From positions 1 to 60,843 of the forward strand of contig DASSPF010000041.1 in the NCBI GenBank assembly GCA_035699805.1: a stretch of DNA of 60,843 nucleotides, in the 5' to 3' direction. Each line of letters begins with the position of its first letter. The first letter of the stretch is position 1. Positions 29,801-42,622 of this stretch are shown in pieces. A program made the translations under genes and the position numbers. The stretch is from Candidatus Limnocylindria bacterium (GTDB lineage: Bacteria > Chloroflexota > Limnocylindria > P2-11E). Below the pieces are notes generated by a model. It did no database searches. It was not told the DNA's origin and saw nothing but the letters and a program-made list of their open reading frames with translations.

Positions 29801-30177
29801 GTGCCACACACCCCGGCCGCCTCGGGCCGGTGACGGTCTTCAGCGCCCGGCGCAGCGAGGTCGTGCGCTTCTATCGCGACGTCGCGGGGCTCGCGCCGGA
29901 CGACGCCGGTGAGGTGACCTGGTTCGACACGGGCGACGCGAAGCTCGCGATCCACGATCCGGCGGACCGCCAGACGCCGGCGGAGGTCCGCGGGCAGCAG
30001 GCCTTCGTCGTCTGGCTCGGCGTGGACGATGTGCGCGTGGTGTACGAGCGGGCCAAGGCCGCCGGTGCGACCATCGGCGAGTTCCACGGCGACTTCTTCT
30101 ACGCCAAGGACCCCGAGGGCCGGTTCGTCGGCTTCTACGCATTGGAGGAGCACCATGGCCACGACCACGCGCACTGA
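29797..30177 (+). CDS. VOC/glyoxalase-family small protein with a His-rich C-terminus
   Basis: A 126-aa protein with a beta-alpha-beta-beta-beta-like pattern. The tail is EEHHGHDHAH. There is an ATGA overlap with hbd. Confidence 0.6.
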   Translation: MSATHPGRLGPVTVFSARRSEVVRFYRDVAGLAPDDAGEVTWFDTGDAKLAIHDPADRQTPAEVRGQQAFVVWLGVDDVRVVYERAKAAGATIGEFHGDFFYAKDPEGRFVGFYALEEHHGHDHAH

Positions 30178-31333
30178 GCCGTCCGCGGGGTTCGACCTCG
30201 AGCTCACCAGCGAGCAGGCGATGGTCCAGCGCACCGCGCGCGACTTCGCGCAGGAGAAGGTGCTCCCGCTCGCGCACCAGATCGACGAGCAGAAGGACGT
30301 GCCCGCGGCGCTCGTCACGGAGATGGGGCGCCTCGGCTTCATGGGGATCGACGTGCCCGAGCAGTACGGCGGCTCCGGGCTCGACTCGCTCACGTACGTG
30401 CTCGTGGTGGAGGAGATCAACCGCGCCTGCGCGTCCACCGGCGTGACGCTCTGCACCCATGTGAGCCTGGCGATCGAGCCGATCCTGCGCTTCGGCACCG
30501 ACGCGCAAAAGGCCAAGTGGCTGCCGGCCATGGCGCGCGGCGAGACGCTCGGCTGCTTCGCGCTCTCCGAGCCGGCCACGGGCAGCGACGCCGCCGCCAT
30601 GCGCATGACCGCGCGCCGCGAGGGCGACGTCTTCGTGCTGAACGGGACGAAGAACTTCATCACCAACGGCTCGAAGGCCGGGATCGCCATCGTGTTCGCG
30701 CAGACGGATCCGGCGCTGCGGCACAAGGGCATCGCCGCGTTCGTCGTCGAGAAGGGCACGCCCGGCTTGGGCGTGGGGAAGCTCGAGTCCAAGCTCGGGA
30801 TCCGCGGATCGGACACCGCGCAGCTGGTCTTTCAGGACTGCCGCGTCCCCGCCGCGAACCTCATCGGCGAGGTCGGCCAGGGCTTCAAGATCGCGCTCGC
30901 GACGCTCGACGGCGGCCGCATCAGCATCGCAGCGCAGGCGGTGGGCATCGCCCGCGCCTGCCTCGAGGACGCGCTCGCCTATGCGAAGGAGCGCGAGGCG
31001 TTCGGCAAGCGCATCGCGGACTTCCAGGCGATCCAGGCGATGCTCGCCGACATGTCCACCGAGGTGGACGCCGCGCGCCTTTTGGTGTGGCGCGCCGCGA
31101 CCATGCGCGATCGCGGCGAGCCGCACCGCATGGAAGCCGCGCAGGCGAAGCTCCTCGCCAGCGACATCGCCATGAAGGCGGCACGGAATTGCGTGCAGAT
31201 CTTCGGCGGGTATGGCTACCTCACCGACTTCCCGGCCGAGCGTCACTACCGCGACGCGAAGATCACCGAGATCTACGAAGGGACGAGCGAGATCATGAAG
31301 CTGGTCATCGCCGAGGAGATGCTCGAGGAGTGA
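30155..31333 (+). CDS. Acyl-CoA dehydrogenase (short-chain/butyryl-CoA type)
   Basis: ALSEPATGSDAA, QIFGGYGY and YEGTSEI are ACAD signatures. GGAGGAG lies upstream of the ATG at 30155. Confidence 0.92.
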   Translation: MATTTRTEPSAGFDLELTSEQAMVQRTARDFAQEKVLPLAHQIDEQKDVPAALVTEMGRLGFMGIDVPEQYGGSGLDSLTYVLVVEEINRACASTGVTLCTHVSLAIEPILRFGTDAQKAKWLPAMARGETLGCFALSEPATGSDAAAMRMTARREGDVFVLNGTKNFITNGSKAGIAIVFAQTDPALRHKGIAAFVVEKGTPGLGVGKLESKLGIRGSDTAQLVFQDCRVPAANLIGEVGQGFKIALATLDGGRISIAAQAVGIARACLEDALAYAKEREAFGKRIADFQAIQAMLADMSTEVDAARLLVWRAATMRDRGEPHRMEAAQAKLLASDIAMKAARNCVQIFGGYGYLTDFPAERHYRDAKITEIYEGTSEIMKLVIAEEMLEE

Positions 31334-31340
31334 GCGTTCC

Positions 31341-33377
31341 GTGACCGCTCCCACGGGCAGCTTCGTCTGGGGCGGGGCGATCCTGCTCGTTCTCACGCTC
31401 CTGGCGTTCGGTGCGTTCGGGCTGCGGGTCTGGCACCTGTACCGCCTCTTGCGGCTCGGCCGCGACGAGACCCGGCTGGACCACGGCTGGCGGCGGGTGC
31501 GTGACGAGCTGGTCATCTACCTGGGGCAGCGCAAGCTCCTCACGCGCCCCTACTACCTGCGCGGGCTCGGGCACGCGCTCATCTTCTGGGGTTTCCTCGT
31601 CATCACCTACGGCAGCGCGGACCTCCTACTGCGCGGCATCCTCGGCTGGCACCTGCCGTTGACCGACAGCGGCCTGTACGCGTGGTCGCTCGATCTCTTC
31701 GCGATCGCGGTGCTCGCCTCGATCGTCATCGCGCTCTATCGGCGTGCCGTGCTCCATCCCGCGCACATGCACATCGCGCGCGAGGGCTACCTGATCCTCG
31801 GCCTCATCGCGTTCCTCATGCTGACGCTCCTGGCCTTCGAGGGCGCGGGCGTCGCGGCGGGGATGCTCGAGCCGGGCGCGGCCGCGCCGCCGCTCGCGGG
31901 CGCGATGCGCGAGCTGTTCCCCGGCACCTCGTCGTCCACCGTCTTCTTCTGGTCGTGGTGGGCGCACGTCGTGACCGTGCTCGGCTTCGCCGTCTATCTG
32001 CCGCGCACGAAGCATCTGCACATCGTCACCACGCTGCCCAACGTGTTCTTCCGCTCGCAGCGCCCGCGCGGCGCGCTCGCGCTCATCGAGGGCATCGAGG
32101 AGCGGGAGACCTTCGGCGCCGCGACGATCCGCGACTTTTCGTGGAAGCAGCTTCTCGACGGCTACACCTGCACCGAGTGCGGCCGCTGCTCGGACAACTG
32201 CCCAGCGCTCGCCACGGGCAAGCCGCTCGACCCGCAGCGCATCGTCCTGGACATCCGCGACCAGCTGCTCCGAGAGGGTCCGAAGCTGCTCGCCGACCCG
32301 GCGGCGGCCACGACCGCACCCGCGCACTGGAGCGCGACGAAGCCGGAGGAGCTCTGGGCCTGCACCACCTGCGCCGCGTGCGTGGAGGCGTGCCCGGTCA
32401 CGATCGAGCACATCGACAAGATCGTGGACATGCGCCGCAACCTCGCCCTCATGGAGGGGGCGATGCCGGCGGAGGCGCAGCGGTCCATGACGAACATCGA
32501 GCGCGCCGGGAACCCCTGGGGCGAGCCGCGCGCCGCCCGGGGCGAGTGGGCCGCCGGCCTGGACATCCCCACGTTCGCCGAGAGACCCGACGCCGAGTAT
32601 CTCTACTTCGTCGGCTGCGCCGGCTCGTACGACCGCCGCAACCAGAAGGTCGCGCGCTCGCTGGCGACCATCCTGCGCGCCGCGGGCGTCTCGTTCGCGA
32701 TCCTCGGCGCCGAGGAGACCTGCAACGGCGATCCCGCCCGCCGGCTCGGCAACGAGTACCTCTGGCAGATCCAGGCGCAGCAGAACATCGAGGTGCTGAA
32801 CGGGCACGGCGTGAAGAAGGTCATCACCAGCTGCCCGCACTGCTTCAACACCATCGCCAACGAGTTCCCGCAGCTGGGTGGCCGGTACGAGGTCGTCCAC
32901 GCGCTGCAGCTCGTGCAGCGGCTCATCGCGGAGAAGAAGATCACCCTCAGCGATGGCGAGGCCGACATCGTCGCGTACCACGACCCCTGCTACCTCGGCC
33001 GGCACAACGGCATCTATGACGAGCCGCGCGCGGTGCTCGACGCCATCCCCGGCGTGGAACGAAAAGAGATCGCGCCGCACCACCGCGAGCGTGGCTTCTG
33101 CTGCGGCGCCGGCGGCGGCCGGATGTGGGTCGAGGAGAAGATGGGTCAGCGGGTGAACCACCGGCGCGTCGAGCAGCTGGTCATGGCGGATACCGGGGCC
33201 ACCAAGGTGGCGAGCGGCTGCCCCTACTGCCTGATCATGCTCGACGAGGGCGTCGGGGCAAGGGGCGTGCAGGACCAGATCAAGCCGGTCGACGTGCTGG
33301 AGCTCGTCGCCGCACGCCTCGTGGCGGCCGCGCCGGCGGAGCATTCGGCCCAACGCAGCGACAAGGAGATCGCGTGA
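31341..33377 (+). CDS. Membrane-bound (Fe-S) oxidoreductase, HdrD/GlpC-like with a polytopic N-domain (EtfD-like)
   Basis: About 5-6 N-terminal TM helices. There are two 4Fe-4S motifs, CTECGRCSDNCP and CTTCAACVEACP, and two CCG-type Cys-rich domains (VGCAGSY...CPHC; HDPCYLG...CCGAGGG...CPYC). It sits directly upstream of etfBA. Confidence 0.85.
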   Translation: MTAPTGSFVWGGAILLVLTLLAFGAFGLRVWHLYRLLRLGRDETRLDHGWRRVRDELVIYLGQRKLLTRPYYLRGLGHALIFWGFLVITYGSADLLLRGILGWHLPLTDSGLYAWSLDLFAIAVLASIVIALYRRAVLHPAHMHIAREGYLILGLIAFLMLTLLAFEGAGVAAGMLEPGAAAPPLAGAMRELFPGTSSSTVFFWSWWAHVVTVLGFAVYLPRTKHLHIVTTLPNVFFRSQRPRGALALIEGIEERETFGAATIRDFSWKQLLDGYTCTECGRCSDNCPALATGKPLDPQRIVLDIRDQLLREGPKLLADPAAATTAPAHWSATKPEELWACTTCAACVEACPVTIEHIDKIVDMRRNLALMEGAMPAEAQRSMTNIERAGNPWGEPRAARGEWAAGLDIPTFAERPDAEYLYFVGCAGSYDRRNQKVARSLATILRAAGVSFAILGAEETCNGDPARRLGNEYLWQIQAQQNIEVLNGHGVKKVITSCPHCFNTIANEFPQLGGRYEVVHALQLVQRLIAEKKITLSDGEADIVAYHDPCYLGRHNGIYDEPRAVLDAIPGVERKEIAPHHRERGFCCGAGGGRMWVEEKMGQRVNHRRVEQLVMADTGATKVASGCPYCLIMLDEGVGARGVQDQIKPVDVLELVAARLVAAAPAEHSAQRSDKEIA

Positions 33378-33378
33378 G

Positions 33379-34152
33379 ATGAGATTCCTGGTGTGCCTCA
33401 AGCAGGTCCCCGATTCGACGGTGCGCGTGAAGGTCGGCGCCGACGGCCGCTCGATCGCCACCGAGGGTGTGACCTGGTCGATCTCGCCGTACGACGAGTA
33501 CGCCATCGAGCTCGCGCTCGAGCGCAAGGACGCTGACCCGACCACTGTCGTGAGCGTCGTCACCGTGGGGCCGGCGCGCTCGCGCGACGCGCTGCGCCAG
33601 GCGCTCGCGATGGGCTGCGACGACGCGACGCTGGTGCTGGCGGAGGTGCCGCTCGGCGGCCTGGACGTGGCGAAGGCGCTCGCCAAGATCGTGGAGGAGC
33701 TCCGGCCCGAGGTGGTCCTCTGCGGCAAGCAGGCCTCGGACGACGATCAGGGTCTGGTCGGGCCGGCCCTCGCCGAGACGCTCGGCTGGCCGCACGTCGG
33801 CATGCTCACCCGGCTCGTGCCGGGTGCCGAGGGGATCGAGCTCTGGCGCGAGGCCGAGGGCGGACACGAGGTGTGGCGCGCCACACCGCCGGTCGTCGGG
33901 CTGGTGCACAAGTCGGAGAAGGAGCCGCGCTACCCGAGCCTCCCGGGGATCATGAAGGCGAAGAAGAAGGAGATCCCGGAGAAGACGCTGGAGTCGCTCG
34001 GTGTGACCGCCAATGGTCCGACGGACGACGTCGTCTCCATGGAGCCGCCGCCGCAGCGTGGCGGCGGCAAGATCTTCAAGCTCGACGGCGACCCCGCTGG
34101 TGTCGCGGCGACGCTCGCGCAGGCGCTCCACGAGGAGGCGAAGGTCCTATGA
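33379..34152 (+). CDS. etfB: Electron transfer flavoprotein beta subunit
   Basis: MRFLVCLKQVPDS...SPYDEYAIE...CGKQASDDD is a canonical EtfB. Confidence 0.93.
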   Translation: MRFLVCLKQVPDSTVRVKVGADGRSIATEGVTWSISPYDEYAIELALERKDADPTTVVSVVTVGPARSRDALRQALAMGCDDATLVLAEVPLGGLDVAKALAKIVEELRPEVVLCGKQASDDDQGLVGPALAETLGWPHVGMLTRLVPGAEGIELWREAEGGHEVWRATPPVVGLVHKSEKEPRYPSLPGIMKAKKKEIPEKTLESLGVTANGPTDDVVSMEPPPQRGGGKIFKLDGDPAGVAATLAQALHEEAKVL

Positions 34153-35051
34153 AGATCCTCGTCGTCGCGGAACGCCGGTCCGGCGAGGTGCGCCGGGTCT
34201 CGCTGGAGATCGCGGCCAAGGCCGCGGGGCTCGGCGAGTGCGAGGTCGTCGCAGTGGATCCCCCGGGTGGGAAGGAGCAGGCGCGCTACTCGCCAGTGGC
34301 CCACGCGACCGCCGTGGCCGAGAAGGCGCGGGCCTCGGGCGCCAAGGTGGTGCTCGTGGGCGCGACGCTCGACGGGCGCGACCTCGCCGCTCGTCTGGCG
34401 GCGAAGCTCGGGTGGTCGTATGCGGCCGACTGCACCGACGTCGCGGTCGAGGATGGATCCATCGTCGCGAAGCGCGCGATGTACGCGGGCAAGATCCGCG
34501 CGACCGTGCGCGTCGCGCTTCCCGCGGTCATCTCGGTGCGGCCGGGCGCGTGGACGCTCCCGAGCGGCGCCGCAGCGCCCGCGATCGTCGACATCGACGC
34601 GGCCGCGGACGACCCGCGCGTGGCGTTCGTTCGGTTCGAGGCCACATCGAGCGGCGGCAAGCGCGTGACGCTGGCCGAGGCGCGCACCATCGTGTCTGCC
34701 GGACGCGGGCTCAAAGGGCCCGAGAACTGGAAGATGGTCGAGGAGCTCGCCGACGTCCTCGGCGCGGCGACCGGCGCATCCCGCGCGGTGACCGACGCCG
34801 GGTGGCGGCCGAACGAGGAGCAGGTCGGCCAGACCGGGAAGACCGTGACGCCGGACCTGTACATCGCGCTCGGCATCTCGGGCGCCATCCAGCACCTGGC
34901 GGGCATGACCGCGTCCAAGGTGATCGTCGCCGTGAACAAGGATCCCGACGCCGACATCTTCAAGATCGCCGACTACGGCGTCGTGGGCGACCTCTTCGAG
35001 TTCGTCCCAGCGTTCACCGAGGCGGTGAAGAAGGTGAAGGGTCGTGGCTGA
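34149..35051 (+). CDS. etfA: Electron transfer flavoprotein alpha subunit
   Basis: The C-terminal FAD-binding region is GQTGKTVTPDLYIALGISGAIQHLAGM. There is an ATGA overlap with etfB. Confidence 0.93.
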   Translation: MKILVVAERRSGEVRRVSLEIAAKAAGLGECEVVAVDPPGGKEQARYSPVAHATAVAEKARASGAKVVLVGATLDGRDLAARLAAKLGWSYAADCTDVAVEDGSIVAKRAMYAGKIRATVRVALPAVISVRPGAWTLPSGAAAPAIVDIDAAADDPRVAFVRFEATSSGGKRVTLAEARTIVSAGRGLKGPENWKMVEELADVLGAATGASRAVTDAGWRPNEEQVGQTGKTVTPDLYIALGISGAIQHLAGMTASKVIVAVNKDPDADIFKIADYGVVGDLFEFVPAFTEAVKKVKGRG

Positions 35052-35075: not shown

Positions 35076-36233
35076 ATGAAGCTCGTCCCGAGCCGGACCG
35101 ACAGCGAGCTCGCGCTCGCGGTGCGTTCCTGGGCGGCGAGCCTGGACCCGCGCATCGCGCCGGCGGAGGAGGCGGGCACGCTCCCGCTGGACGTCGTGCG
35201 CGAGCTCGGGGACCTTGGCGTCCTGGGCATGACGGTCCCTGAGGCCGACGGCGGCCTGGGCGCGTCCGCGGTGGCGTTCGCGCTCGTCCTCGAGGAGCTC
35301 GCGCACCGCTGGCCGTCGCTTGCCCTGGGAGTCTCCGTGAACAGCGGCATCGTCGCGGGCTCGATCGTCCGCTACGGCACCCGCGAGCAGCGCGCACGCT
35401 GGCTGCCCACGCTCATGGACGGCCGCGGGCTCGGCGCGTTCGCGCTCACCGAGCCGGCGTCCGGCAGCGACGCGGCGTCGCTCCGTGCGACGGCGGTGCG
35501 CGACGGCGACGGCTGGCGCATCAGCGGGCAGAAGCAGTTCATCACCAGCGCGCGCTACGCACCGCTCTTCATCGTGCTCGCGCGTGACAGCGCGGCGGAG
35601 CCCGCTGACGCGCGCCCACAGGCCGGCGTCACCGCGTTCATCGTCCCGGCCGACGCCGCGGGTGTCAGGGTCGGTGCCGCCGAGGCGAAGACCGGGCTCC
35701 TCGCCTCGGACACGAGCGCGCTCGTCCTCGACGACGTGCGTGTGGCAGCCGACGCCGTGCTCGGCGAGGTGGGGAAGGGCTTCGCCATCGCCATGGCCGG
35801 CCTCGACGGCGGCCGGATCGGCATCGCCGCGCAGTCCGTGGGCATCGCGCGGGCCGCGGTGGACCGGGCCGTGGCCTACGGGCGCGGCCGCGCCCAGTTC
35901 GGACGGTCCATATTGGAGTTCGAGATGCCGCGCTTCTCGCTCGCGACCGCCCGCACCGAGATCGACGCCGCGCGCCTGCTCACGCACCGGGCCGCGTGGC
36001 TGCGCGACCTCGGCCGCCCCTTCACTCGCGAGGCGTCGATCGCCAAGCTGTACGCGAGCGAGGTCGCGCAGCGCGCGACCTACGCCGCGGTGCAGGTCTT
36101 CGGTGGATACGGGTACATGCGCGAGTACGGCGTGGAGCGCTACGCACGCGATGCGCGCGCGACCACCATCTACGAAGGGACGAGCGAGGTTCAGCGGCTG
36201 GTGATCGCGCGCTCGCTGCTCGGCGCGGCATGA
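35076..36233 (+). CDS. Acyl-CoA dehydrogenase
   Basis: [21 protein letters not shown] and YEGTSEVQ. Confidence 0.9.
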
Positions 36234-37909
36234 CGGAGATCGCGAGGACGGACAAGGGGCGCTGGCTCGAGGACGTGTACGGGCCGGCCGTGCGCAAGCG
36301 CGCGGAGCGGCGCGAGCGGTTCACCACGATCTCCGGCGAGCCGGTCGAGCCGCTGTACACGGCCGAGGATCTGGGCGGCTTCGACCCGACGCGCGATCTC
36401 GGTGCGCCTGGCGAGTTCCCGTACACCCGAGGCATCCATCCGACCATGTATCGCGGCCGGCTATGGACGATGCGCCAGTTCGCGGGATTCGGCTCGGCCG
36501 AGGACACCAACGAGCGCTTCCACTACCTGCTCGCGCACGGCGTGAACGGACTCTCGACCGCGTTCGATATGCCCACGCTCATGGGCCGCGATGCGGACGA
36601 TCCGCTCTCGCGCGGCGAGGTCGGCCGCGAGGGTGTGGCCGTCTCCACGCTGCGCGACATGGAGATCCTCTTCGACGGCATCCCGCTCGATGAGGTCACG
36701 ACATCCATGACCATCAACGGGCCGGCGTCGATCATCTGGGCGATGTACCTGGCGGCGGCGGAGCGTCGCGGGATCGCGCTCACGGCGCTCGGCGGGACGA
36801 TCCAGAACGACTGTCTCAAGGAGTACATCGCGCAGCGCGAGTGGATCGTCCCGGAGCGCGCGGCGATGGCCCTCGTCGTGGATACGTTCCGCTTCGGGGC
36901 GCGTGAGGTCCCCAAGTGGAACACCATCTCCGTCTCCGGGTACCACATCCGCGAGGCCGGAGCGACCGCGCTCCAGGAGCTCGCGTTCACGCTCATCGAC
37001 GGCCTCGAGTACGTGAAGTGGGGCGTGCGCGCCGGTCTGGACGTGAACGAGTTCGTCCCGCGCATGTCCTTCTTCTTCGACGTCCACAACGACTTCTTCG
37101 AGGAGATCGCCAAGTTCCGCGCCGCGCGCCGCATCTGGGCGCGCGAGATCGAGCGCCGCTATCACCCCACCAACCCGCGAGCGCTCCAGCTGCGCACCCA
37201 CGCGCAGACCGCGGGCGTCTCGCTCACGGCGCAGCAGCCGTACAACAACGTGGTCCGCGTGGCGCTCCAGGCCCTCGCCGCGGTGCTCGGCGGCACGCAG
37301 TCGCTGCACACGAACTCGCTCGACGAGACCTACGCCCTCCCCACGAAGGAGGCGGTGACGCTCGCGCTCCGGACGCAGCAGATCATCGCGCACGAGTCGG
37401 GGGTGGCCGACACGGTCGATCCGCTCGCGGGCTCGTACTACCTCGAGCACCTCACGCAGCGGATGGAGGAGGGCTTCGCGCGGTACCTCGCCGAGATCGA
37501 GGGGATGGGCGGTATGGTCGAGGCGGTGGAGCGCGGCTACCCGCAGCGCGAGATCACCGAGGCGTCGTTCCGCTTCCAGGAGCAGGTCGAGAAGCGCGAG
37601 AAGCTCATCGTCGGCATCAACGCGTACGCCACCGACCAGGACCCGCCGATCCCGCTCCTCCAGATCGACCCGGAGGTCGAGGCGAAGCAGGTCGCGCGGC
37701 TGGCCGAGGTGCGCCGCACGCGCGACGGCGGCCGCTGGCGCGAGTCGATGGACCGGCTGCGCGAGGCCGCGATCGCGGCGAAGACGAGCGATCGCGCGGA
37801 GCTCATGCCCGCGTTCCTCGAATGCGCGCGCGCCTACGCGAGCGTGGGCGAGCAGGTCCAGGTGCTGAAGGAGGTCTTCGGTGTCTACCGAGACCCGGGC
37901 TACTACTAG
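36230..37909 (+). CDS. B12-dependent acyl-CoA mutase, large catalytic subunit (methylmalonyl/isobutyryl-CoA mutase family; ICM-like F/Q signature)
   Basis: [32 protein letters not shown]...STAFDMPT...[17 protein letters not shown]. There is an ATGA overlap with the preceding ACAD gene. Confidence 0.92.
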
Positions 37910-39614
37910 CCCGCGGGAGCTGCTCGCGCAGGTCGAGGGCGGCTACCGCGCCACGCGCGCGGTGATCGACGCGCTCGGGCCGGAGCGCTTCGACACGCGC
38001 CTCCTGTCCGGCATGACGCTGCGCCAGATGGTGGCGCACCTTGCGGCGTGGGAGGAGACGGTGCCGCCGCGGGTGGAGCGCGTGCTGCGCGGCGAGGGCG
38101 ATGACCCGGCGTACGAGGATGTGGACGGCTTCAACGCGCGGGTCTTCGAGGAGACCAGGGATGCGACGGTGGAGCACCTGCGCGCGCGCTACGCCACCGT
38201 CCACGAGCGCGTGGTCGAGGTCCTCCGCTCATTCCTGGGCCGCGACGTCCCCGCGCTGGCGCTGGACATCGTCGAGTGGAACACCACAGGTCACTATCCC
38301 GATCACTACCGTGACCTCGGCAGCGCGATCACCGACGCGACCGAGCTCGCCGCCGTCGTGCGGCGCGGCTGGATCGACTTCCGGATCGATCTCCTGGCCC
38401 TCGGGCCGCTCATCGAGCGGCCGACGCCGATCGGCTGGACCTACATGGACCTGCTGGCCCACGTGATCGGATGGGAAGAGCTCACCGTCGCGCGCCTTGC
38501 GACGCTGCGCGAGACCGGCGAGCCGGTCGGCCCGGGCGGCACCGCCGACGAGATCAACGCCGACCTCGTGGCGCGCGCGCGGGGTCGCTCCGCGCGCGAG
38601 CTCTTCGAGGAGTTCGACGCCGCGCACGCGCGTCTGGTGGAGGAGATCGGGAAGCTCTCGCCGGAGCAGCTCCACGCGCACGACGCGTGGGCCATCGCGG
38701 TCGTCGCCGGGAACACCTACGGCCACTACGCCGAGCATCACCACGAGCTCCAGGCCGGCGTCCCGCAGACGAGCGGCGAGCTCGTGGAGCGCCTGCGCGA
38801 CGGCTGGCGCCCGTACCGCCGCGCGCTCGCGCGTGCCGGCCTCGCGCCGCTCGGCGGACCAACGGCCTCGGGGTGGACCGGCAAGGCCCTGCTCGCGCAC
38901 CAGGCCGGCTGGCTGGAGTGGTGCCGGAGCGAGGTCCCCAACCGGCTCGCCGGCACGCGCGGGCCCACACCGGTCTCGGTCGAGCACAACGCGCGCGAGG
39001 CCGCGGCGGCGGAGGGCCGCTTGGCGCACGAGGTCGTCGCGCGGCTCGATGCCGCGTACCGCGCGCTCCTGGATGCGCTCACGGCGCTGCCGGCCGACGC
39101 CGCGGCGCCGACGGACCTGGTGCGTCTGGTGGCCGCGACCGTCTACGGCCACTTCGCCGAGCATCTGCACGAGCTCGAGGCGCTCGTGCCCACCGACACC
39201 CGGGCGGTCCTCCGCCGGTTCGACCAGACCTGGTCGCGCTTCCGCGGACGGATCCGCGAGGTCGGTCGGGCCCGGCTCATGGACGCCACGCCCTCGGGCT
39301 GGTCGTACCGCGACATGTGCGCACACGCGGCGAACTGGATGCAGAACGCGGTGAGCGAGCTCGCCGGAGCGCCGCGGTCCTGGAGCCGGGAGACGATCCA
39401 GGCCGAGAACGAGCGCGCCGTCGAGGCGCACCGGCTCGTCGGGGCCGAGGCGATGCTCGACGAGCTCGACACGTCCCACGCGCGCGTGCGCGAGGCGATC
39501 GCGGCGCTCGGTGATGAGCGCCTGCGCGATCCGAGGATCTTCGGGATCGTGGCGTTCTACACATACCTGCACTGGGAGGAGCATCTGCACGAGGACCTGG
39601 GGGTGGATCTGTGA
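37881..39614 (+). CDS. Protein of four tandem DinB/DfsB-like four-helix-bundle repeats
   Basis: A roughly 142-aa repeat occurs four times. Helix-1 motifs are [48 protein letters not shown] and [17 protein letters not shown]-terminal His motifs are [30 protein letters not shown] and [10 protein letters not shown]. The gene overlaps both flanking mutase genes. Confidence 0.75.
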
Positions 39615-40033
39615 AGCGACCGATCAGGGTCGTCGTGGCGAAGGCCGGCCTGGACGGACACGATCGCGGGGCGAAGGTGGTCGCGCGCGCGCTGCGCGAC
39701 GCCGGCATGGAGGTCATCTACACCGGCGTCCACCAGACGCCAGAGCAGGTCGTCGAGACCGCGCTCCAGGAGGATGCCGACGCGATCGGCATCAGCCTCC
39801 TCTCGGGGGCGCACAACTACATCTTTCCGCGCGTCGCCGAGCTCATGAAGGCGAAGGGCATGGACGACGTGCTGCTGTTCGGCGGCGGGATCATCCCGGA
39901 GGCCGACGTCCCCGGGCTCCAGAAGGCCGGCGTGGAGCGCATCTTCCCGCCGGGCGCCTCGCTGGAAGAGATCGTGCGGTACCTGAACGAGGCGGTGGGG
40001 AAGCGCCGCGGAGCACCGGTCAGTGGCCGGTAG
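39611..40033 (+). CDS. Acyl-CoA mutase small subunit (cobalamin-binding domain)
   Basis: The DxHxxG B12-binding motif lies in [15 protein letters not shown], and SLLSGAH and GGGIIP are also present. There is a GTGA overlap with the upstream gene. Confidence 0.92.
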
Positions 40034-40142: not shown

Positions 40143-40541
40143 ATGGCCATCTTTGGGGGAAACAAGCAGGACACCCGCCCCGTCGACGAGGGCCTCGGGA
40201 AGCTCCGGGGAAGCGATGAGGCCACCGCCGTCGCGTTCTGGAAGAAGCGCCTCGAGCTCACCGCACAGGTGGGCAGCGAGGTCGCGCGCGTCGGCGCGCT
40301 CACGCCACAGCTCCGTGAGCTCACGCGGATGACCGACCGTGAGGAGCGCAAGCGCCTGACGCGTGCGCGGATCATCGCGTTCTCGCAGCTCAGCCAAGAG
40401 CAGCGCCAGGTGGTCGGCGAGGCCCGCCGCAAGGCCTTCGCGGTGGATCCCGGCGTCATGGAGGACGACCAGGCGATGGTGGACGAGATCCTGCCCACGC
40501 TCGATCAGAGCGTGGTCGCGGTCTATCCGCGGCGTCCATAG
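40143..40541 (+). CDS. Hypothetical protein (helical, charged)
   Basis: A 132-aa ORF. AAAGGAG lies upstream of the ATG at 40143. I recognise no family. It sits inside the operon. Confidence 0.5.
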   Translation: MAIFGGNKQDTRPVDEGLGKLRGSDEATAVAFWKKRLELTAQVGSEVARVGALTPQLRELTRMTDREERKRLTRARIIAFSQLSQEQRQVVGEARRKAFAVDPGVMEDDQAMVDEILPTLDQSVVAVYPRRP

Positions 40542-41681
40542 ATGGACCTCCGCTATCGCGACGACCAGCTCCTCGTTCGCGACACGGTCCGCGACTTCGT
40601 GCGGTCGCGGATCGTGCCGAACGCGGACGCCTGGAACGACGCGGCGGAGTTCCCGCTCGAGCTCCTCCCTGAGCTCGCGGCGCTCGGGCTGCTCGGGCTC
40701 GCGGTGCCCCCCGAGCACGGCGGCGCCGGGCTCGACATGCTCACCATCGCCATGGTGATGGAGGAGCTGGGCGCCGGCGACGGATCGATCGCGCTCACTC
40801 TCGCCGCGCACAACTCGCTGTGCATCGGTCATCTCCTCGTGGCGGCGAGCGAGGAGCAGAAGCGCCGTTGGCTCCCGCCGCTCGTCCGCGGCGAGCATCT
40901 CGGCGCGTGGGCGCTCACCGAGCCCGGCTCCGGCTCCGACGCCATCGCGGTGCAGAGCACCGCGCGGAACGTCGGTGAGGGCTACGTGCTGAACGGCACG
41001 AAGCAGTTCATCACCAACGCCTCGCTCGCCGGTCTGGTCGTGGTGAACGTCGGCAGCGGTCCGCGGAAGATGAGCGCCTTCGGCGTGGCCCGTGGCGCCG
41101 TGGGTCTCCGTCCGGGCAAGCGCGAGCGCAAGATGGGCCTGCACGCCAGCGATACCTCGCAGCTCATCCTCGAGGACTGCCGCGTCGGCGCGGCCGACCT
41201 CATCGGGACCGATGGCGGCGCGTTCGCCGACGTGAAGAAGGTCCTCGACAAGGGTCGCATCGGCATCGGTGCGCTGGCCATCGGTCTCGGCCGCGCGTCG
41301 GTGGAGACGGCCACGGCCTACGCGAAGCAGCGCACGCAGTTCGGGAAGGCGCTCGCGGAATTCCAGATGATCCAGTGGAAGCTCGCGATAAGCCGCACCG
41401 AGCTCGACGCGGCGCGCCTCTTGGTGCATCGCGCCGCGGCGCAGGCGGACGCGGGTGCGCCGTTCGGCGTCGCCGCGTCCAAGGCCAAGCTGTACGCCTC
41501 CGAGGCCGCGAGTCGCGCGGCGAACGCGAGCCTCCAGGTCCTCGGCGGGTACGGGTATCTGCGCGACCACCCGATCGAGCGGCATCTGCGCGACGCGAAG
41601 CTCATGGAGATCGGCGAAGGGACGAGCGAGGTCCAGCGACTCGTGATCGCGCGCGACCTCGTCCAGCAGGCCACCGCGTGA
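40542..41681 (+). CDS. Acyl-CoA dehydrogenase
   Basis: [21 protein letters not shown] and GEGTSEVQ. Confidence 0.9.
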
Positions 41682-42622
41682 CGGTCGTCGCGGCCGCCGA
41701 GCTGGTCAGTCGCGCGCGCGGCGGCGACACCCGATCCACCGCGCGGCTCCTGTCGCTGGTGGAGAACGACGAGCCCGGCGCGGCGGACGTGCTGCGCGAG
41801 CTGTACCCGCTCACCGGGAAGGCGCGCATCGTCGGCGTGACCGGACCGCCGGGCGGGGGCAAGAGCACGCTGGTGAACCGGCTCGCCGGCGCGTACCGCG
41901 AGGAGGGGACGCGCGTGGCGGTGGTCGCGGTGGATCCCTCGAGTCCGTTCACTGGCGGTGCGCTGCTCGGCGACCGCATCCGCATGACCGACCGCTTCCT
42001 CGACGAGGGCCTCTTCATCCGCAGCATGGCGAGCCGGGGACACTCCGGCGGCCTCGCGCGCACGACCTCGCGCGTGGTGAACGTGCTCGATGCCCTCGGC
42101 TACGGGGTCGTGCTGGTGGAGACGGTCGGTGTCGGCCAGGAGGAGGTCGAGGTCGTCCGCGTGGCGGACAGCGTGTGTCTGGTGACCGTCCCCGGCCTGG
42201 GTGACGACATCCAGGCGATCAAGGCCGGCGTGCTGGAGATCGCCGACGTGCTCGTGGTGAACAAGGCCGATCGGCCCGGCGCCGACGAGACGGCGCGCGA
42301 TCTCGCGCAGATGCTCACGCTCGGCAAGCTGCGCACCACTTGGAAGCCGCCCATCGTGCGGACCGTCGCGGCGACCGGCGACGGCGTGCGCGAGCTGGTC
42401 GAGGCGATCGCGCGCCATCGCGCCTGGGCGGCCGAGAGCGGCGAGCGCGAGCGGCGCCGGCGCGACGCCGCCCGCGTGGAGGTGGAGGACCTGCTGCGCG
42501 ACGCCCTGGTGAAGCGCCTGCGCGACCGGTTGGGCGAGGAGCGCGTGGAGCGGGCCATCGCACGCGTCGCCGACCGCGCGGTCGATCCGTACGCGGCCGT
42601 CGAGGAGCTCCTGCGCGGGTGA
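41678..42622 (+). CDS. meaB: Mutase-associated G-protein chaperone (MeaB/ArgK family)
   Basis: The P-loop is GVTGPPGGGKSTL. DPSSPFTGGALLGDR, ETVGVGQ and NKAD are also present. There is a GTGA overlap with the ACAD gene. Confidence 0.92.
   Translation: MTVVAAAELVSRARGGDTRSTARLLSLVENDEPGAADVLRELYPLTGKARIVGVTGPPGGGKSTLVNRLAGAYREEGTRVAVVAVDPSSPFTGGALLGDRIRMTDRFLDEGLFIRSMASRGHSGGLARTTSRVVNVLDALGYGVVLVETVGVGQEEVEVVRVADSVCLVTVPGLGDDIQAIKAGVLEIADVLVVNKADRPGADETARDLAQMLTLGKLRTTWKPPIVRTVAATGDGVRELVEAIARHRAWAAESGERERRRRDAARVEVEDLLRDALVKRLRDRLGEERVERAIARVADRAVDPYAAVEELLRG

Follow-up and report, generated by a model that had tools for sequence, protein, structure and literature searches.

A four-domain DinB-fold protein encoded between the subunit genes of a split acyl-CoA mutase in Limnocylindria

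The accessory proteins of B12-dependent mutases, namely MeaB, adenosyltransferase and CblC/D, are of medical as well as mechanistic importance, and none of those known has a DinB fold. What, then, would such a protein be doing between the two halves of a split mutase, and does the mutase rely on it? This question is raised by a locus in a Candidatus Limnocylindria bacterium (Chloroflexota; assembly GCA_035699805.1, contig DASSPF010000041.1), of which we analysed a stretch of 60,843 nucleotides, referred to below as the window. The gene in question (37881..39614, + strand) encodes a 577-residue protein of the DinB superfamily and lies between mutL, for the large (catalytic) subunit of an acyl-CoA mutase, and mutS, for the B12-binding small subunit. 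An original prediction, made from the letters of the window alone, took the protein to be a cofactor-handling, repair or scaffolding factor for the split mutase. Reliance of the mutase on such a factor does not survive comparison with related genomes, since at least seven complete operons, including two from the genus of the window, lack the DinB gene. The protein may still have a facultative accessory role, which is weighed here against its rivals.

Four tandem DinB domains in a single chain

Translation of the window gives an uninterrupted frame of 577 amino acids from 37881 to 39614, with a third-position GC content (GC3) of 93%, as expected for a real gene; the GC content of the window is 70.7%. 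The frame opens at 37869, 12 nt before GTG 37881, which is the first start codon thereafter and has the Shine-Dalgarno sequence AAGGAGG 7 nt on its 5′ side. Because the invariant residues L14 and Y22 are encoded 5′ of the next candidate start (37962), the gene has no workable start other than 37881, and the GTG chosen by the original prediction can be retained.

Two motifs reveal the internal organization of the protein. G(W/M)(T/S)xxx(L/M)xAH is present in exactly four copies, with its His at residues 53, 194, 340 and 482, and H(Y/F/W)x(E/D)H likewise in exactly four, at residues 138-142, 282-286, 424-428 and 564-568. The repeats they delimit are about 142 residues long and mutually 28-39% identical when compared with one another by BLASTP (E 1e-4 to 4e-16), so that the chain of four tandem repeats noticed earlier is borne out by translation, motif counts and alignment alike. 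All on the + strand, they comprise R1 (residues 1-150, 37881..38330; triad H53/H138/H142), the first nine codons of which overlap the end of mutL and which is found only in four-domain forms of the protein; R2 (residues 151-295, 38331..38765; triad H194/H282/H286); R3 (residues 296-437, 38766..39191; triad H340/H424/H428); and R4 (residues 438-577, 39192..39611; triad H482/H564/H568), an anchor domain that is orthologous to single-domain proteins.

When each repeat is scanned alone, all four exceed the Pfam gathering cut-off of 24.2 bits for MDMPI_N (PF11716), with scores of 28.5, 34.5, 33.4 and 32.3 from R1 to R4. Three of the four also pass DinB_2 (PF12867; R1 30.7, R2 33.1 and R4 31.3, cut-off 24.8), and for DUF1706 (PF08020; cut-off 24.2) R2 is accepted at 33.1 bits, R1 (23.2) and R4 (15.7) fall below and R3 gives no match. 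The NCBIfam model TIGR03083 matches the whole protein in four stretches, a single domain scoring below its cut-off. An AF2 model of the 577-residue protein, built from an alignment of 34 family members, has a mean pLDDT of 90.6 and a pTM of 0.84, the latter suggesting that the four predicted bundles pack in a defined way. Compared with the Protein Data Bank (PDB) by Foldseek, its high-probability matches are all single-domain DinB-fold proteins or domains, with TM-scores of about 0.6-0.7 per target. They are led by the DfsB/ClbS-like structures 5cof, 7mtl and 5civ (0.69-0.71 over the target) and include the N-terminal domains of EgtB, OvsA and SenA, maleylpyruvate isomerase (2nsg), mycothiol S-transferase (8f5v) and YfiT (1rxq). 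The four-domain arrangement was not found among solved structures in this comparison, and the full-length sequence had no match when searched against the PDB. As judged by profiles and by the predicted structure, the protein is a fourfold tandem of DinB/MDMPI_N/DUF1706-like four-helix bundles with a predicted metal-binding His triad, which upholds the fold assigned to it originally.

Each bundle carries a YfiT/EgtB-like three-His site (H...HxxxH) together with a conserved Asn and Trp. Among the 34 family members, all 12 triad His residues are invariant or at least 90% conserved. The series Trp-His-Asn-His-His at five diagnostic positions is kept in all 71 full-length domain copies from one- to four-domain forms, two truncated copies with incomplete sequence standing outside this set; it is departed from only where some copies of the first domain (D1) have Met or Leu instead of Trp and one copy has Ser instead of Asn. 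Conservation across all architectures indicates that selection maintains the putative metal site in each copy. Conservation is highest in R4, where 39 positions are invariant versus 16-24 in R1-R3. Its invariant residues outside the metal site, maintained in one- to four-domain orthologues, are W451, R455, R459, G462 and R463 plus the segment L519-V-G-x-E-A-x-x-D-E-L-D530, a motif that was found neither in R1-R3 nor in the single DinB domain of a sister family described below.

Both ends of the gene are embedded in its neighbors, and the two overlaps noted in the original prediction are confirmed. The stop codon of mutL lies at 37907-37909, giving an overlap of 29 nt, and the TGA of the DinB gene shares a GTGA with the GTG start of mutS at 39611. 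In related loci the DinB start lies 29 or 32 nt inside mutL and its internal Shine-Dalgarno sequence, built from the Lys-Glu-Val codons of mutL, is kept whatever the domain number. An NTGA overlap joins the DinB stop to the mutS start in 21 of 25 loci, again independently of domain number, and the two genes occupy differing reading frames in every locus compared.

Domain gain and gene loss between mutL and mutS

A word-indexed search recovered 275 relatives at E ≤ 0.001, the best 120 of which are nearly all 574-590 residues long and 54-72% identical, and an exhaustive HMMER search gave 517 matches at E ≤ 0.001 among 1.84 billion representatives. The four-domain form is essentially one cluster at 50% identity, and the relatives come from metagenome-assembled genomes labelled Candidatus Limnocylindria or Chloroflexi. 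Among 301 genomes spread over the phylum, only that of the window has the four-domain protein. Within the order, the expectation that orthologous mutase operons would contain such a gene is supported by a DinB relative in 77 of 94 genomes and in all ten genera. The order mutL-DinB-mutS is present in all nine four-domain loci, where the order of the operon genes is likewise conserved, and in a further 19 loci with fewer DinB domains; at 20 places in the order, four, three, two or one DinB domain stands between mutL and mutS, depending on the lineage. One locus (DASQIF010000056.1), on a contig labelled Candidatus Acidiferrales (Acidobacteriota), holds a complete Limnocylindria-type operon with 77-94% identity over six core genes and a mutL nested in the Limnocylindria clade, which is probably a binning error and not a gene transfer.

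A tree of individual domains gives a direction to this series. Whatever the form, its C-terminal domain is an orthologue of the single-domain proteins (support 99/95), the third domain of the four-domain form clusters with the second domain of three-domain forms (support 100/100), and D1 is restricted to four-domain forms. The C-terminal domain is thus the ancestral anchor, the others having been added later, and because both overlapping junctions are unchanged whatever the domain number, growth proceeded by internal duplication. A different arrangement is seen in family f70, where two tandem two-domain DinB genes, coupled to each other by an ATGA, lie between mutL and mutS (L023 5088-6847, + strand), and where the domains of the two genes are each other's closest relatives. 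Four domains were thus reached twice independently, in family f1 within a single chain and in f70 by a pair of coupled genes.

The gene has also been lost repeatedly. Nine genomes of the order in which no DinB match was found were searched for mutS, and at least seven of these carry a complete operon in which mutL is followed directly by mutS: G328 and G338 in the window's genus; G357, G360, G361 and G363 in genus g176; and G379 in genus g180. Traces of the missing gene are preserved in several of them. The operon of G338 retains a 60-codon open reading frame (ORF; L045 2449-2630, - strand) composed of DinB residues 1-51 and the last ten residues, which matches a four-domain relative by BLASTP at E 8e-18 and still has both overlaps. 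G379 and G357 retain ORFs of 36 and 16 codons that keep an ATGA overlap with the mutS start, and in G328 the former DinB start now reads in frame into mutS (L044). Sites of these other remnants are at L049 ~2460-2575, L050 ~2416-2470 and L044 ~2408-2450, all on the - strand. The mini-ORFs derive from the two ends of the lost gene and continue to overlap mutL, the start of mutS or both. The pattern suggests that coupling to mutS, rather than the DinB protein, is what DinB-less lineages must retain.

In a tree of mutL, the DinB-less operons are nested within the four-, two- and one-domain clades, and the well-supported branches there require at least four independent losses. The mutL nearest to that of the window, at 91% identity, belongs to the DinB-less G338. 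The intact operons and the independent losses together indicate that the DinB protein is not an obligate scaffold or cofactor chaperone. A role as obligate subunit or chaperone of the split mutase is accordingly rejected, the protein being absent from some of the places where the orthologous mutL/mutS operon occurs.

The mutase operon, its host and a sister family

The operon occupies the + strand and begins with an acyl-CoA dehydrogenase (ACAD) gene of uncertain start codon (30029..31333). It continues with an Fe-S/CCG-domain oxidoreductase (31341..33377), the likely electron acceptor for the electron transfer flavoprotein (ETF) encoded next to it (33379..35051; beta subunit 33379-34152, alpha subunit 34149-35051), and with a second ACAD (35076..36233). 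Then follow mutL (36230..37909; 559 residues, PF01642 at E 4e-215), the DinB gene and mutS (39611..40033; 140 residues, PF02310 and TIGR00640, with DxHxxG at residues 15-20). Downstream are a conserved helical ORF of about 132 residues (40143..40541), a third ACAD (40542..41681, by Pfam/NCBIfam) and the MeaB G3E GTPase (about 41678..42622; PF03308 at E 6e-95), whose likely GTG start overlaps the ACAD stop.

The longest ORF for mutL would encode 637 residues from GTG 35996 and overlap the upstream ACAD by 238 nt. The ATGA overlap of ATG 36230 with the ACAD stop, and a 555-residue gene call in a related locus (L009), make 36230 the most likely true start. The best solved relative of the protein is 2-hydroxyisobutyryl-CoA mutase (HCM; 4r3u, E 2e-161). 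Alignment to 4r3u, 1req and 2xij places Phe84 and Gln202 at the positions of Tyr89 and Arg207 of methylmalonyl-CoA mutase (MCM), with the motifs WTMRQFAGF and KEYIAQR, and on this alignment mutL bears the signature of an isobutyryl-CoA mutase (ICM). Assignment as an HCM was rejected, since relative to 4r3u_A mutL has Phe in place of Ile and TAFD in place of TDFD (Asp117). Up to about residue 556, the protein also includes the linker region present in HCM and MCM alignments.

Elsewhere in the genome (G000:C201:47-1570, L034) lies another large-subunit gene, of the Tyr/Arg (MCM) type, followed by a glyoxalase-fold gene that possibly encodes the epimerase. The genome, which is 91% complete, yielded a single mutase-type small subunit and a single MeaB locus. 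Because only one small subunit was found for two large ones, one B12-binding subunit may serve both. Adenosyltransferase was not found within the mutase cluster, and the original prediction had made an argument of this. As a description of a cluster with MeaB and no adenosyltransferase it stands; as an argument it is weak, because a PduO-type adenosyltransferase is encoded on another contig of the same genome (C153). The 2.4-Mb genome also has four frames resembling cysteinyl-tRNA synthetase (CysRS) or MshC (C211:2612-3754, C69:2-835, C28:1750-2988 and C5:2152-3360), which score 225-341 bits to the MshC model, all below its cut-off of 485. These are more cysteine-ligase paralogues than expected, and one of them could make an unrecognised cysteine-containing thiol.

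The ORF of about 132 residues stands directly after mutS in most orthologous operons; it is conserved in 16 loci and absent from one (L007). It has no Pfam or NCBIfam match, and its AF2 model is a helical repeat (pLDDT 88.4, pTM 0.81) with no significant PDB match in a fold search. It shows no relation to the DinB domain by hhalign (probability 0.1%), and the operon may thus have in it another component not yet described.

A looser arrangement is seen in a sister family of the same class (L026, L031, L032 and L033), which has a single-domain DinB about 39% identical to R2. The block there runs HDAC, GTP cyclohydrolase I (folE), DinB, zero to two variable genes, mutS, MeaB and 3-hydroxyacyl-CoA dehydrogenase, the variable insert being an acetyltransferase, methyltransferase or helix-turn-helix (HTH) gene, once on the opposite strand. 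In one member (G277) a Phe/Gln-type large subunit is encoded about 6 kb upstream on the same strand. Since DinB is near mutS and MeaB in this family as well, the neighborhood of DinB and mutS predates the order, and its tight coupling to the mutase genes is derived.

Possible roles and known relatives

The role that we favor, tentatively and short of an even chance, is that of a facultative, metal-dependent accessory tied to the ICM-like mutase or its pathway, as distinct from a mutase subunit. It is preferred because the position of the gene is kept across ten genera, because the anchor motif arose with the coupling, and because four domains were selected twice. The overlaps would bring about translational coupling, so that the DinB protein would be made together with the large and B12-binding subunits, and the metal sites would be its working parts. 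Through the conserved basic (R455/R459/R463) and acidic (E523/D527/E528/D530) helix faces of its anchor domain, the protein might dock to another product of the operon, the small subunit being the most likely, and would then act near the mutase in stoichiometric amounts. It could remove a reactive, thiol-reactive or mutase-inactivating by-product, for example an enoyl-CoA from the three ACADs of the operon, or alternatively handle corrinoid that is released or damaged. A benefit felt only under some conditions would explain the losses in individual lineages. The boldest form of this proposal, in which the array is a facultative guardian of a B12 radical enzyme, docked by its anchor on the small subunit, with metal sites, one to four per chain, that capture or reprocess escaped or damaged corrinoid or else destroy inactivators of the enoyl-CoA type at the enzyme, and with the number of sites tuned by domain duplication and collapse, is improbable in that full detail.

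Several observations weigh against a partnership with the mutase. In addition to the seven or more intact operons that do without the gene, DinB proteins are 52-64% identical among loci versus 75-94% for mutL and mutS, and hence evolve much faster. Overlaps of 4 nt are the rule across the whole operon and are not peculiar to DinB and mutS, so gene overlap does not prove a specific association of DinB with the mutase. The DinB gene of the sister family is linked closely to folE, with the variable genes separating it from mutS. Among the long representative matches, none fused this DinB to a B12 or mutase domain. Finally, BshC of bacillithiol synthesis and EgtB of ergothioneine synthesis have no match in the 91%-complete genome, and the best match to the MshC model of mycothiol synthesis (340 bits, cut-off 485) is probably a CysRS paralogue, which counts against a thiol-transferase mechanism.

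Nearly as likely as an accessory role is that the protein is a DinB-type stress or detoxification metalloenzyme whose chemistry is unrelated to the mutase, and which is retained for a task of its own and uses the operon only for its expression, a view to which we would give somewhat less than one chance in three. Its placement would then be historical, the mutL block having moved into an ancestral neighborhood of folE-DinB and mutS-MeaB. The losses, the fast evolution and the layout of the sister family are explained about as well by this history, in particular the repeated disappearance of DinB from intact operons while mini-ORFs keep the coupling to mutS. About nine further DinB_2 paralogues in the genome, and the existence of tandem two- and three-domain DinB proteins elsewhere among the long representative matches, fit it too. 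However, unrelated chemistry does not readily account for a position kept in ten of ten genera and found again near mutS in the sister family, for an invariant anchor motif confined to the lineage coupled to both mutL and mutS, or for the attainment of four domains twice inside the operon. A dedicated corrinoid factor seems unlikely to us. In such a role the metal sites, perhaps with a thiol, would remove or replace the upper ligand of cobalamin that is arriving or damaged, or the bundles would keep cob(II)alamin released by the small subunit pending its reloading by MeaB and the PduO-type adenosyltransferase, making the protein a functional analogue of eukaryotic CblC/CblD. It is the anchor domain that is coupled directly to the gene for the B12-binding subunit, the sister family has a DinB relative near mutS and MeaB with no adjacent mutL, and cofactor traffic may be demanding where a single small subunit apparently serves two large ones. 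On the other hand, neither the PDB sequence search nor Foldseek revealed a likeness to any known cobalamin-binding protein, the gene is dispensable in close relatives, searches for BshC, MshC and EgtB uncovered no thiol pathway, and a literature search gave no link between DinB and cobalamin. Least probable by far is an obligate scaffold that holds the separate subunits together and replaces the covalent linker of fused mutases. It would suit a gene that lies between those for the two subunits and is coupled to each of them, and a model in which four domains pack compactly, but the seven intact DinB-less operons include that of the owner of the nearest mutL, the large subunit already has its own linker region, and a mere spacer would not need a three-His site in each domain.

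Literature searches on DinB with acyl-CoA mutase or cobalamin, and on Limnocylindria with mutase, returned no paper on the pairing. New here are the series of one to four domains, the anchor-domain motif, the conserved junctions, the two routes to four domains and the natural deletions. Should the DinB protein indeed act on the mutase or on its cofactor, radical B12 enzymes would gain a new and optional layer of protection or repair. Even otherwise, the locus offers a natural series in which a gene with coupling at either end expands from one domain to four and collapses repeatedly to coupled mini-ORFs, and should be useful for learning what limits the architecture of an operon sets on the gain of domains and the loss of genes. 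Ready-made controls for experiments are available in the natural deletions.

Among characterized proteins, YfiT/BstA of B. subtilis (1rxq) and the mycothiol S-transferase MST of M. tuberculosis (8f5v; PF04978) have the same bundle, with a His in helix 2 and HxxxH in the last helix. Both are single-domain, dimer-forming proteins, whereas the window protein fuses four domains, and in its host no bacillithiol pathway was found, nor did any match to the mycothiol enzyme MshC reach the cut-off; no member of these two families is known from a B12-mutase operon. The N-terminal domain of MDMPI (PF11716, TIGR03083; 2nsg) represents the best Pfam family for all four repeats and has equivalent metal-site positions, but MDMPI possesses a second, C-terminal domain that the window protein lacks. 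The closest solved structures are those of DfsB/ClbS (DUF1706, PF08020; 5cof, 5civ and 7mtl), though the DUF1706 cut-off is reached by R2 alone; ClbS, a hydrolase of one domain that inactivates colibactin, is not known to use a three-His metal site. EgtB, OvsA and SenA (8vih, 8u41 and 8k5i) have an N-terminal DinB bundle with a three-His facial triad, as here, but their active site is completed by a fused FGE-like domain, which has no counterpart in the window protein. The established mutase accessories MeaB/CblA, the PduO-type adenosyltransferase and CblC/CblD have no relation to DinB in sequence or fold, and DinB is dispensable in close relatives. Nevertheless, like such accessories, the DinB protein is encoded with the mutase subunits and MeaB, and its target could be the cofactor or the lifetime of the enzyme.

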